Shown one piece after another: positions 51,246 to 52,475 of a stretch of 64,000 bases of DNA. The DNA comes from a virus: positions 15,561 through 79,560 of the IMG/VR virus record IMGVR_UViG_3300024324_000425; one strand, 5' to 3'. Below the pieces are notes generated by a model that saw nothing but the letters and a program-made list of their open reading frames with translations, had not been told where the DNA came from and did no database searches. Position numbers and translations under genes: made by a program. Within the stretch, counting starts at the first letter, position 1. Each line of letters starts with the position of its first letter.

Positions 51246-52475
51246 ATGATTAAGTTTAAGTCACATCTAACAGAAGCTAAGAACACACATATGATCCATA
51301 TCGAGGATATGGTTATTGATGGTGGAGTTGATGGTACACGTGCAGCAATCAATGCTCTCCGTGATTTAAGGAATATGTTAGTGGGTCATACCAATGATAC
51401 TAAAGCTGTTACGGTTAAATGGGATGGAGCACCTGCAGTATTTGCTGGCATTGATCCTACTGACGGAGAGTTCTTCGTTGCTAAAAAGGGTATCTTTAAT
51501 AAAAACCCAAAGGTATATAAAAGTCATGATGACATTAACGCTGATACTTCAGGTGATCTGGCTGCTAAGCTTCGTATAGCATATACTGAATTAAAGAAAG
51601 TAGTTACTAAAGGTGTATTTCAAGGTGATATCATGTTCACTAAAGATGACCTTAAAGGTGAGACTATTGATGGACAAAGGTATATAACCTTCCACCCCAA
51701 CACTATTGTTTATGCTATCCCAGTACAAAATGCTAAAGAAGTATTAGCCGCTAAGATAGGTGTTGTGTGGCATACTAAATATACAGGCTCTTCATTTGCC
51801 GGTATGAGTGCTTCATTCAATGTTAAAGATAGTGACTTTATTAAAACATCTAAGGTGTGGCAGAAGACTGCGGATTTGCCTGAAGATCATAGTGCAACGT
51901 TAAGTGAAAAGGATTCAAATACAATCTATCAACATTTATCTATTGCTGGTAAATTGTTTAATAAGATTAAATCGTCTACGCTTAAAGAGGTTTCAACAAA
52001 TAAAGAGATTAATTTATATATTAATACTTTTAGAAACACTAAGGTTAGAGCTCAATCTGATATCACTAACACTAAGAAGCATGCAGAAGAATTAGTACAG
52101 TGGATCCATAACCGCTTTGACAAAGAGATTGATAAGCTTAAATCTGATAAGGGTAAGGCTAAGAAGAATGCTAAGAAGATTGAAGCATTGGCTTGGTTTA
52201 ATAAAGATAATACTAAGAACCTTATATTAATGTTTGACATGCAAAATCATTTAGTCATCGTTAAGAGAATGTTACTCACCCATTTAGATTCTATAAAAAG
52301 TATAAATACCTTTGTAAAGACTAAAAACGGTTTTAAAGTGACAGGCTCAGAAGGTTATGTTGCTATAGACCATTTAACAAATGGTGCGTATAAGATCGTT
52401 AACCGTATGGAATTTAGTTATAACAATTTTAGTAAAGACATAATCAAAGGATGGGAATCTGATGGAAGAGGTTGA
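51246..52475 (+). CDS. DUF6267-like protein with ATP-dependent ligase-type nucleotidyltransferase motifs
   Basis: H..HIED, TVKWDG (KxDG), FQGDIMF, EGYV, YKIV.R; MIKFKSHLTE N-terminus. Confidence 0.65.
   Translation: MIKFKSHLTEAKNTHMIHIEDMVIDGGVDGTRAAINALRDLRNMLVGHTNDTKAVTVKWDGAPAVFAGIDPTDGEFFVAKKGIFNKNPKVYKSHDDINADTSGDLAAKLRIAYTELKKVVTKGVFQGDIMFTKDDLKGETIDGQRYITFHPNTIVYAIPVQNAKEVLAAKIGVVWHTKYTGSSFAGMSASFNVKDSDFIKTSKVWQKTADLPEDHSATLSEKDSNTIYQHLSIAGKLFNKIKSSTLKEVSTNKEINLYINTFRNTKVRAQSDITNTKKHAEELVQWIHNRFDKEIDKLKSDKGKAKKNAKKIEALAWFNKDNTKNLILMFDMQNHLVIVKRMLLTHLDSIKSINTFVKTKNGFKVTGSEGYVAIDHLTNGAYKIVNRMEFSYNNFSKDIIKGWESDGRG

Follow-up and report, generated by a model that had tools for sequence, protein, structure and literature searches.

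Among the genes of marine myoviruses that carry no annotation, the one encoding DUF6267 (cluster T4-GC71) is one of the most widespread, and the locus described here raises the question of what kind of enzyme, if any, this protein is. In the present study, we analysed a window of 64,000 nucleotides (the whole stretch of viral DNA that was examined), in which a 409-aa protein is encoded. An earlier note, made from the letters alone, had reported a set of ATP-dependent ligase motifs in this protein and had proposed a divergent Rnl-like ligase or an adenylylase with a long helical insert, of a kind usually left as a domain of unknown function.

The gene and its conserved motifs

51246..52475, + strand: 409-aa DUF6267 protein, with an RNA-ligase-like covalent nucleotidyltransferase domain and an inserted helical module, as assigned from the open reading frame, Pfam, the AF2 model and structure matches

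The open reading frame starts with ATG and is preceded by AGGA about 10 nt upstream. The frame is under purifying selection, because 12 of the 13 variant sites found within it in environmental contigs are third codon positions. As the earlier note had expected, the product belongs to a Pfam DUF, namely DUF6267 (PF19782; E 4.6e-94, 316 bits against a cut-off of 27, residues 13-396). It is also matched by phrog_455 (E 5.5e-85), and in tblastn it matched the T4-GC71 genes of Syn1 and S-PM2. No mention of the name DUF6267 was found in the literature searched. At 90% identity the family falls into more than 8,000 clusters, and at 50% it is covered by 2,427 representatives; it is present in the seawater metagenomes of many studies. 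A bacterial origin of the gene was considered and rejected; the matches concerned were metagenome bins of incoherent taxonomy and a single 188-kb contig from a Nonlabens isolate, consistent with phage DNA.

The family alignment comprised 108 representatives, which share 31-57% identity with the query; column identity averages 35%. The motifs that had been quoted for this protein (TVKWDG, FQGDIMF, EGYV, YKIV and an N-terminal H-x-x-H-x-E-D) are all there in the stated order, and the invariance of their key columns makes the set more than a chance resemblance.

51288..51308, + strand: H15-x-x-H18-x-E20-D21 motif (HMIHIED, residues 15-21)
51417..51428, + strand: motif I, K58-W-D60-G61 (within TVKWDG, 55-61), where K58 is the candidate nucleotidyl-accepting lysine
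51618..51638, + strand: motif III-like strand F125-Q-G127-D128-I-M-F131 (strand 124-132)
52350..52361, + strand: motif IV, E369-G370-Y-V (EGYV, 369-372; strand 370-375)
52389..52400, + strand: motif V, Y382-K383-I-V (YKIV, 382-385; strand 380-384)

The invariant columns include H18, K58, D60, G61, G127, D128, E369, G370 and K383, and H15, Q126 and R387 are conserved in at least 90% of the sequences. Motif I is placed at the end of strand 55-58 of the AF2 model, and a motif IIIa (F149, N152 and Y156, invariant or nearly so) lies on strand 144-159. Two departures from the usual form were observed: motif III carries Asp where Glu is usual, and motif V has a single lysine, the second Lys of the usual K-x-K being absent, with R387 conserved nearby. 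The family has what defines covalent nucleotidyltransferases, a K-x-D-G motif I with a conserved Lys followed in order by motifs III, IIIa, IV and V, all on strands. Judged from order and strand position, not from superposition, these residues are probably equivalent to those of ligases. The H-x-x-H-x-E-D element, just ahead of which the leaderless family members start, may have a role in nucleotide or metal binding.

Predicted fold and relation to known ligases

The AF2 model of the 409-aa protein has a pLDDT of 93.9 and a pTM of 0.91, every motif is on a beta-strand, and the fold is that of the adenylyltransferase (NTase) domain. When the model was compared with 48,161 PDB representatives with no prior, ATP-dependent RNA ligases ranked first and DNA ligases next. 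In a second structure comparison, the best 50 chains were ligases without exception. A comparison of predicted folds had been proposed as a check on the earlier claim of a divergent Rnl-like ligase or adenylylase, and its outcome supports that claim, with RNA ligases ahead of DNA ligases. The best structural Z was 8.2-8.4, a level that the tool itself calls middling, and there is no significant profile link, so the case for a ligase rests on the consistency of the hits and on the invariant motifs.

By sequence, the family stands far from known ligases. Neither phmmer with the protein nor hmmsearch with the 108-sequence profile or an N-terminal 200-residue profile found a ligase among PDB sequences, and the Pfam scan gave no PF01068 match in the 409-aa protein. 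Alignment of the family profile by hhalign with T4 Rnl1, Rnl2, gp30 and an Rnl1 family profile was non-significant (E 0.03-0.4), and with a 50-sequence Rnl1 alignment only the motif IV/V stretch was aligned (E 0.12 over 20 columns). The best local alignment placed EGYVAI..GAYKI on EGYVAV..GSHFKI of T4 Rnl1 (E227, G228, K240) at E 0.1, which is non-significant alone. Foldseek against PDB returned nothing at E <= 0.001 (best E 0.2), with capping enzymes among the weak rows, and ESM Atlas gave unnamed viral clusters only. Weak matches to PF09511 (Rnl1/Trl1) were obtained in 4 of the 108 family members (best E 6e-4); when ten members picked with phmmer were scanned against Pfam, these matches were not recovered, and the window protein itself has no PF09511 match even at E up to 10.

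51906..52289, + strand: all-helical insert rich in lysine (residues 221-348), separating motif IIIa from motif IV

The long helical insert that the earlier note had described is real. In the AF2 model it is made of helices 221-240, 243-251, 253-268, 276-297, 301-316 and 320-348, which follow the motif IIIa strands and precede the motif IV strand. It contains 25 K+R against 15 D+E, and N264 is invariant. Only about 25 residues follow motif V, so that there is no OB domain; the model shows one helix (387-395) and a short one (402-405) in this part, with no beta-barrel. A C-terminal OB-fold with motif VI, as found in PF01068 DNA ligases and capping enzymes, is absent.

Comparison with known enzymes makes these features clearer. 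NgrRnl of Naegleria gruberi (Rnl5 type; PDB 5cot, 6vtg) has no detectable sequence similarity to DUF6267, with 11-12% identity in aligned residues. Unlike NgrRnl, DUF6267 has the 128-residue helical insert between motifs IIIa and IV, a putative capsid-targeting leader, and the H-x-x-H-x-E-D element instead of the NgrRnl N-domain. The sole weak sequence signals of DUF6267 point to the family of T4 Rnl1 and Trl1 (PF09511), in which the invariant K99-x-D101-G102 has the same K-x-D-G form as K58-W-D60-G61. A further possible parallel is an all-helical accessory module, inserted in DUF6267 but C-terminal in Rnl1/Trl1, combined with a P-loop AAA_33-type kinase as partner or fusion; in the known systems this is T4 Pnkp or Trl1-KIN, and the kinase found with DUF6267 may likewise act on polynucleotides. 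The upstream invariants R54, K75 and F77 of Rnl1 have no evident counterpart in DUF6267. T4 gp30 and its PF01068 relatives differ from DUF6267, which is without their OB domain and motif VI and gives them lower structure scores than RNA ligases. Taken as a whole, DUF6267 is very probably a divergent RNA-ligase-type covalent nucleotidyltransferase without an OB domain.

A putative capsid-targeting leader

51246..51275, + strand: residues 1-10, MIKFKSHLTE, a leader resembling the T4-type capsid-targeting sequence and ending in an L-x-E site
16799..17455, + strand: gp21-type prohead protease (Peptidase_S77; PF03420 E 1.9e-44, G000 32410-32856, which is window 16850-17296)

Residues 1-9 of the protein are disordered in the AF2 model (pLDDT below 50), and the HMIHIED motif starts four residues past the predicted cleavage site. 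In T4, IPII and IPIII begin with MKTYQEFIAE and IPI with MKTFKEF (NC_000866). IPI, IPII, IPIII and Alt are T4 head proteins that carry a capsid-targeting sequence, are cleaved by gp21 and enter the cell with the DNA. As in the T4 leaders, the decapeptide of DUF6267 has an aromatic residue at position 4, a residue of aromatic type at 7 (here His), an aliphatic one at 8 and Glu at 10. Positions 4 and 7 of IPIII determine targeting, and positions 8 and 10 determine processing (PMC9026906). In MIKFKSHLTE, F4, H7, L8 and E10 fall on all four of these mapped positions.

The pattern was found in 4 of the 750 open reading frames of the 79.6-kb contig, and all four are genes of one cassette, DUF6267 and three neighbours. 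Across 80 related loci it was present in 60 of 80 DUF6267 genes and 52 of 74 cytidylyltransferase genes, against 0 of 78 control neighbours. Of the 40 leader-matching representatives, 39 have F or Y at position 4, and all 40 have F, Y or H at position 7 and L or I at position 8; position 10 is E. The leader is missing in about a fifth of the family representatives, and cyanophage orthologues of DUF6267 such as that of Syn1 are among the proteins from which it is absent.

The T4-style leader suggests that virions carry the DUF6267 protein and deliver it into the cell along with the DNA, and the gp21-type protease of the same genome would be the enzyme that cleaves it. In the table of 16 cyanophages, T4-GC71 itself is not flagged by proteomics; the virion proteomics behind that table covers three of them, S-SM1, S-PM2 and Syn9. 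The cyanophage orthologue of the neighbouring cytidylyltransferase, T4-GC190, was detected in the virion proteome of S-SM1 (PMC3037559) and in S-CREM2 virions (PMC10665884).

The gene cassette and its partners

48610..48617, + strand: TATAAATA, a match to the T4 late-promoter consensus, immediately ahead of the first cassette gene
48623..49495, + strand: 290-aa P-loop kinase-like protein (Zeta_toxin / AAA_33 type; Pfam Zeta_toxin E 3.5e-5), leader MHNFKSFLGE
49536..50906, + strand: 456-aa protein (phrog_1462, T4-GC533-like), leader MKSFKSFDLVE
52462..52806, + strand: 114-aa lysine-rich small protein, internal-protein-like
52803..53624, + strand: 273-aa HIGH-motif (cytidylyltransferase-like) nucleotidyltransferase (Pfam CTP_transf_like, phrog_395 / phrog_3041), leader MIHGFKEHYLTE

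The cassette is conserved, its genes are on the same strand, and a late-promoter-like motif stands ahead of its first gene. In 15 of 19 related loci, TATAAATA precedes p456, the first cassette gene, by at most 80 nt, and it stands ahead of the first cassette gene in C48C1 and Melnitz as well; upstream of DUF6267 itself it was found in only 6 of 78 related loci. This motif is not enriched in the window (19 observed against 12.7 +/- 3.6 expected by chance), and what is informative is only its strand bias and its position ahead of the first cassette gene. Contigs from three metatranscriptome libraries also contain the cassette with 100% identity, which is no proof of its transcription because such libraries may contain carried-over DNA.

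The kinase-like protein gave a non-significant BLASTP result against T4 PseT, and the 456-aa protein, for which the model is confident, had no fold match. The gene of the 114-aa protein separates DUF6267 from the cytidylyltransferase in 52 of 80 related loci; the window copy is without a leader, and its relatives often have one (MLSFKQFVSE in C48C1, MKKFSELTSELIE in Melnitz). In 74 of 80 related loci the cytidylyltransferase follows DUF6267 on the same strand. It had no significant PDB sequence match, whether searched alone or as a profile of 55 sequences, and its NCBIfam matches to NMN and pantetheine-phosphate adenylyltransferases are weak (E 4e-3 to 7e-2). Gene fusions join the same partners: DUF6267 is fused to the cytidylyltransferase in both orders, and the kinase type is fused to DUF6267 in two cases (P0123, L085) and to the cytidylyltransferase in four (L086, L049, L034, L045).

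Trl1 and bacterial Pnkp both combine a ligase with a kinase. In contrast to the Rnl1/Trl1 systems, the DUF6267 cassette showed no phosphoesterase or CPDase healing domain; we know of no HIGH-type NTase partner in those systems. To our knowledge, Rnl1 and Pnkp have not been reported as head-packaged, and no role in RNA or DNA repair is known for a HIGH-type nucleotidyltransferase. The locus is similar to the T4 internal-protein system in having a gp21-type protease in the genome and a late-promoter-like element ahead of the cassette. Furthermore, the small basic neighbour resembles the T4 internal proteins, and an enzyme as cargo recalls Alt. It differs from T4 in the predicted cargo itself, a ligase-like enzyme, a kinase and a HIGH NTase; we know of none of the three as T4 head cargo.

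Proposed explanation and alternatives

On balance, and with moderate confidence, we explain the DUF6267 protein as a capsid-targeted, virion-delivered end-sealing enzyme of the RNA-ligase type that acts with partners. The protein would be made late from the operon-like cassette, its first ten residues would serve as a T4-type capsid-targeting sequence for entry into the prohead, and the gp21-type protease would cleave after L8-T9-E10. The mature enzyme would then enter the cell together with the injected DNA, accompanied by the P-loop kinase, the HIGH-type nucleotidyltransferase and the 456-aa protein, and in relatives by the small basic protein. For catalysis, AMP from ATP would be transferred onto K58 of motif I, while D60, D128, E369, K383 and the N-terminal H-x-x-H-x-E-D would hold the nucleotide and metals; the AMP would pass to a 5'-phosphate end, which would be sealed to a 3'-OH, and binding of the nucleic acid would fall to the lysine-rich helical insert. 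RNA ends are the favoured substrate of the ligase module. Such enzymes may form a pre-made kit for healing and sealing of ends, most likely mending RNA (e.g. tRNA) cut by host defence nucleases, and this repair would precede any phage protein synthesis. A bolder form of the proposal, which we offer tentatively and hold to be rather unlikely as a whole, is that marine T4-like phages inject an RNA repair kit of kinase, new RNA ligase clade and HIGH NTase, which mends tRNAs or other RNAs cut by abortive-infection nucleases of the host ahead of all phage translation, the HIGH NTase carrying out a repair step new to any pathway, e.g. adenylylating the 5'-phosphate end or making the nucleotide donor of the ligase.

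The fusions of HIGH NTase and P-loop kinase can also be read in another way. This combination is usually met in small-molecule activation (NadR, CoA synthase, PAPS synthase), and together with the weak NMN and pantetheine-phosphate adenylyltransferase matches it raises the idea that DUF6267 joins no polynucleotides and works with the two enzymes in a pathway that modifies small molecules or proteins. One possible form is a NadR-like synthesis of NAD+ or an NDP-X, of which DUF6267 would use or transfer the product (AMPylation, or a capping-like reaction), with early delivery that would reset host metabolism or counter NAD+-depleting defences. The cyanophage cytidylyltransferase has been termed a virion-carried NMNAT homologue (PMC10665884), enzymes directed at NAD+ or ADPr are often packaged by phages (PMC9503650), and the capping enzymes in the weak Foldseek rows are in line with this idea. 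We nevertheless consider it rather improbable. The best structure matches are all polynucleotide ligases, with no capping enzymes or other transferases among them; the cytidylyltransferase lacks a significant match to a solved NMNAT or PPAT even with its 55-sequence profile; the AAA_33 / Zeta kinase type includes polynucleotide kinases too; and the lysine-rich insert suggests binding of nucleic acid.

The distribution of the family raises the possibility of a DNA substrate. DUF6267 is encoded by C48C1, Syn1 and Melnitz, and a search of their complete genomes found neither a PF01068 nor a PF01653 ligase. Every one of the 16 cyanomyophages in the classic comparison has T4-GC71, and the list of 'non-cyanophage core' genes includes gp30 (PMC5349666). 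In addition, the neighbourhood of DUF6267 contains replication and nucleotide-metabolism genes (gp41, MazG, nrdA). DUF6267 could on these grounds be the 'missing' DNA ligase of replication and repair in marine T4-like phages, a gp30 substitute sealing Okazaki fragments and DNA nicks. Against this, Stenotrophomonas phage DLP6 combines a gp30-type ligase (PF01068, E 2.5e-15) with DUF6267, the AF2 model has no OB or DNA-binding domain, and RNA ligases rank above DNA ligases in both structure comparisons. A capsid leader and a cassette headed by a late promoter are ill-suited to a replication enzyme, replicative ligases are not seen fused to a kinase or HIGH NTase, and the phages may simply rely on host LigA, so that we find this role quite unlikely.

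That the motifs are coincidental, or that the protein keeps a ligase-like shape but has no catalytic role and serves in the head or as a scaffold, could be argued from the missing profile link to any ligase and from the setting of the gene among probable head-packaged proteins, but it is highly improbable: exactly the residues expected for catalysis are invariant at so low a mean column identity, structural proteins rarely hold K-x-D-G, G-D, E-G and K invariant, ordered and all on strands, the best 50 matches of the second comparison belong to one superfamily, and members of the family occur in fusion with two other nucleotide-handling enzymes.

Significance

We return to the preferred reading, a packaged enzyme of the RNA-ligase type. 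What is new here is the leader matching the T4 capsid-targeting sequence, the conserved cassette with its fusions, and the finding of relatives without a canonical DNA ligase beside DLP6 with both. The leader and the partnership with a HIGH nucleotidyltransferase and a kinase alter the biological reading of DUF6267. Its assignment to the RNA-ligase branch gives a testable function to a core phage gene, and the enzyme would be a ligase type with a structure of its own, marked by the inserted helical module, the H-x-x-H-x-E-D element and the lack of an OB domain; novel ligases are also of use as reagents. The finding bears as well on the old question of how cyanomyophages cope without the gp30 DNA ligase. 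The leader common to DUF6267, the kinase, the HIGH NTase and the 456-aa protein predicts a set of nucleotide-handling enzymes delivered with the genome, and such co-delivery would explain the recurring 'cytidylyltransferase' in cyanophage virion proteomes.

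Results

Residues 13-396 of the 409-aa protein, which the earlier note expected to be of a kind usually left as a DUF, matched Pfam DUF6267 (E 4.6e-94); the protein also matched phrog_455. No mention of DUF6267 by name was found in the literature searched.

Features of the window
51246-52475, + strand: DUF6267 ORF, 409 aa
52462-52806: small lysine-rich ORF, between DUF6267 and the cytidylyltransferase gene
48610: TATAAATA, the T4 late-promoter consensus, preceding the first cassette gene
47313-48614: RimK-type ATP-grasp ligase fused to a C-terminal retropepsin-like (Zn_protease / RimB-like) domain

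The parent contig (G000), which contains the window, comes from a marine T4-like myovirus; it is a fragment of 79.6 kb (completeness about 44%), and its nearest cultured relative is phage C48C1 (Kyanoviridae). The family has at least 8,000 members in a 90%-identity collection (each of the 8,000 candidates scored was significant) and 2,427 representatives at 50% identity. Among cultured phages, it corresponds to cyanophage gene cluster T4-GC71, found in 16/16 cyanomyophages of Sullivan et al. 2010; other carriers are Methylophilales phage Melnitz, Stenotrophomonas phage DLP6, and Pelagibacter and Vibrio phages. Since the 'bacterial' assemblies with matches were metagenome bins of incoherent taxonomy, DUF6267 is regarded as a phage family. 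The sole isolate assembly with a homologue (41% identity) was Nonlabens xiamenensis 1Q3 (L134, NZ_RMVE01000006.1); at 188 kb, its contig is about as long as a T4-like phage genome and could represent either a phage sequenced together with the isolate or a prophage.

Seawater metagenomes from 18 study codes contained near-identical cassettes, as did contigs from six metatranscriptome runs, whose libraries possibly contain DNA. One 1,414-nt RNA-library contig, again with DNA possible, runs from the 456-aa gene through an 89-aa gene into DUF6267, covering its 5' half, with zero differences. Among the environmental contigs, third codon positions made up 12 of the 13 variant sites within the ORF.

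All motifs listed in the earlier note were found in the order described there. In the family alignment (108 representatives that share 31-57% identity with the query, column identity averaging 35%), the fully conserved columns were H18, K58, D60, G61, G68, K81, G127, D128, N152, Y156, H176, N264, E369, G370, K383, F390 and N394. These cover K-x-D-G, G-D, E-G and K, and therefore the motifs are residues held fixed by evolution. With this alignment as input, AlphaFold2 gave a model with pLDDT 93.9 and pTM 0.91.

Segments of the DUF6267 model
Residues 1-9: disordered N-terminus
Residues 16-46: short strand and helices
Residues 55-208: beta-rich region whose strands bear motifs I, III and IIIa
Residues 221-348: six helices
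Residues 354-384: four strands with motifs IV and V
About 25 residues past the last strands: C-terminal tail; OB domain absent

Because the OB domain is absent, the protein falls outside the DNA-ligase and capping-enzyme architectures. Foldseek against PDB returned nothing significant; VIA-align, used without a prior against 48,161 PDB representatives, ranked RNA ligases over DNA ligases. In BFVD, family members came first, followed by weak viral RNA ligases. No sequence-profile method linked DUF6267 to ligases significantly. The best local hhalign match, not significant, placed EGYVAI..GAYKI on T4 Rnl1 motif IV/V (EGYVAV..GSHFKI), whose E227, G228 and K240 are invariant across the Rnl1 family, and weak PF09511 matches occurred in 4/108 members.

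Weak PF18766 (SWI2_SNF2) matches in 14/108 members of this alignment (best E 2e-4) probably arise from the lysine-rich helical insert. Some homologues carry an N-terminal extension of ~115-130 residues (loci L030 420-1952 and L021 7680-9197; proteins P0122, P0154, P0215, P0221, P0235), which in L030 has a weak Cupin_2 match (E 8e-4).

Across 80 related loci, one gene order on the same strand was nearly universal: DUF6267, then the small basic ORF (52/80), then the cytidylyltransferase (74/80). The 456-aa gene lay immediately upstream of DUF6267 in 22.

Fusions among homologous proteins (P) and related loci (L)
DUF6267 + cytidylyltransferase: P0125, P0158, P0233, P0228, P0171, S-PM2 591-aa protein
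Cytidylyltransferase + DUF6267: P0196, P0213, P0255
Zeta/AAA_33 kinase + DUF6267: P0123, L085
Cytidylyltransferase + kinase (+DUF5824): L086, L049, L034, L045

Cytidylyltransferase ORFs reached 1,070 aa (L086 13377-16589, L049 6870-9062, L045 3185-5254, L077 9383-12133; P0125), the added domains being a Zeta/AAA_33 kinase and DUF5824, which recurs in the module. The S-PM2 fusion is a single 591-aa protein in BFVD (A0A0M6VVW4); the 2005 record (NC_006820 103013-104804) has two genes, T4-GC71 (579 bp) and T4-GC190 (1,173 bp), a split that may be artefactual, arising from annotation or sequencing.

Four cassette proteins begin with a capsid-targeting-like leader. A loose leader pattern matched 4 of 750 ORFs (ATG-ORFs >=50 aa, both strands, whole contig), exactly these four.

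Leaders (residues before, then after, the predicted cleavage point)
DUF6267 protein: MIKFKSHLTE, AKN
290-aa kinase-like protein: MHNFKSFLGE, GKS
456-aa protein: MKSFKSFDLVE, ATN
Cytidylyltransferase: MIHGFKEHYLTE, KAS

In the T4 record, IPII and IPIII begin MKTYQEFIAE and IPI begins MKTFKEF. The capsid-targeting sequence of IPIII comprises its first ten residues, of which 4 and 7 serve targeting and 8 and 10 gp21 processing (PMC9026906); DUF6267 has F4, H7, L8 and E10 there, and its relatives usually have F or Y at position 7. The phage of the window encodes a gp21-type protease. In the 80 related viral loci, a strict pattern matched 60/80 DUF6267 genes and 52/74 cytidylyltransferases, with more by eye; many small basic and 456-aa protein copies also carried the leader, and 0/78 copies of six other neighbour types did. 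It is present in Melnitz, DLP6 and C48C1, whereas roughly one in five family representatives lack it, as does cyanophage Syn1. Since leaderless members start directly at the K-N-x-H-L-x-H-x-E-D element, the leader behaves like a detachable module.

The small lysine-rich ORF (also L001 7254-7625, L088 6245-6637) carries the leader in C48C1, Melnitz and many metagenomic relatives (MLSFKQFVSE, MKKFSELTSELIE), and so resembles an analogue of T4 internal proteins. The window copy is leaderless and overlaps the DUF6267 end by 14 nt.

TATAAATA stands just before the first cassette gene also in C48C1 and Melnitz, and in 15 of 19 related loci; its total count in the whole window was not above chance. 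The + strand, coding for nearly all genes, has 18 of the window's 19 exact octamers. One lies 5 nt upstream of the ATG of the RimK-type gene, whose protein has no capsid-targeting leader.

Discussion

The model, the structure ranking and the invariant motifs support, at the level of fold and motif, the earlier reading of a divergent Rnl-like ligase or adenylylase. The DUF6267 protein is very probably a covalent nucleotidyltransferase of RNA-ligase type. The fusions and conserved gene order indicate that the ligase-like, kinase and cytidylyltransferase enzymes belong to one process. Trl1, bacterial Pnkp and the T4 Pnkp/Rnl1 pair likewise combine a ligase with a P-loop kinase. Because of this pairing, and because RNA ligases ranked over DNA ligases, we favour a role of the cassette in RNA end repair. 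We know of no precedent in such pathways for a HIGH nucleotidyltransferase, the type to which the cytidylyltransferase belongs; sequence searches gave no subfamily for this one, which keeps a small-molecule (NadR-like) pathway alive as a rival.

Replacement of the DNA ligase gp30 in marine phages could be suggested, since neither a PF01068 nor a PF01653 ligase occurs in C48C1, Syn1 or Melnitz, whose genomes are complete, leaving DUF6267 as the only ligase-fold gene seen there, and gp30 is a 'non-cyanophage core' gene (PMC5349666). However, DLP6 has a gp30-type ligase alongside DUF6267, and this, the architecture and the late, predicted-packaged context speak against a straightforward replacement.

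T4-GC190, the cyanophage cytidylyltransferase, was detected in S-SM1 and S-CREM2 virions (PMC3037559, PMC10665884). T4-GC71 carries no proteomic flag in the cyanophage table, consistent with the absence of the leader in cyanophage orthologues. Packaging of DUF6267 into the head, with cleavage, is a strong prediction for the present phage and seems rather likely to us. We suggest that DUF6267 adds a novel and structurally distinct variant to the RNA-ligase-type covalent nucleotidyltransferases; its activity is predicted, and it is probably delivered by the virion within a conserved enzyme cassette.
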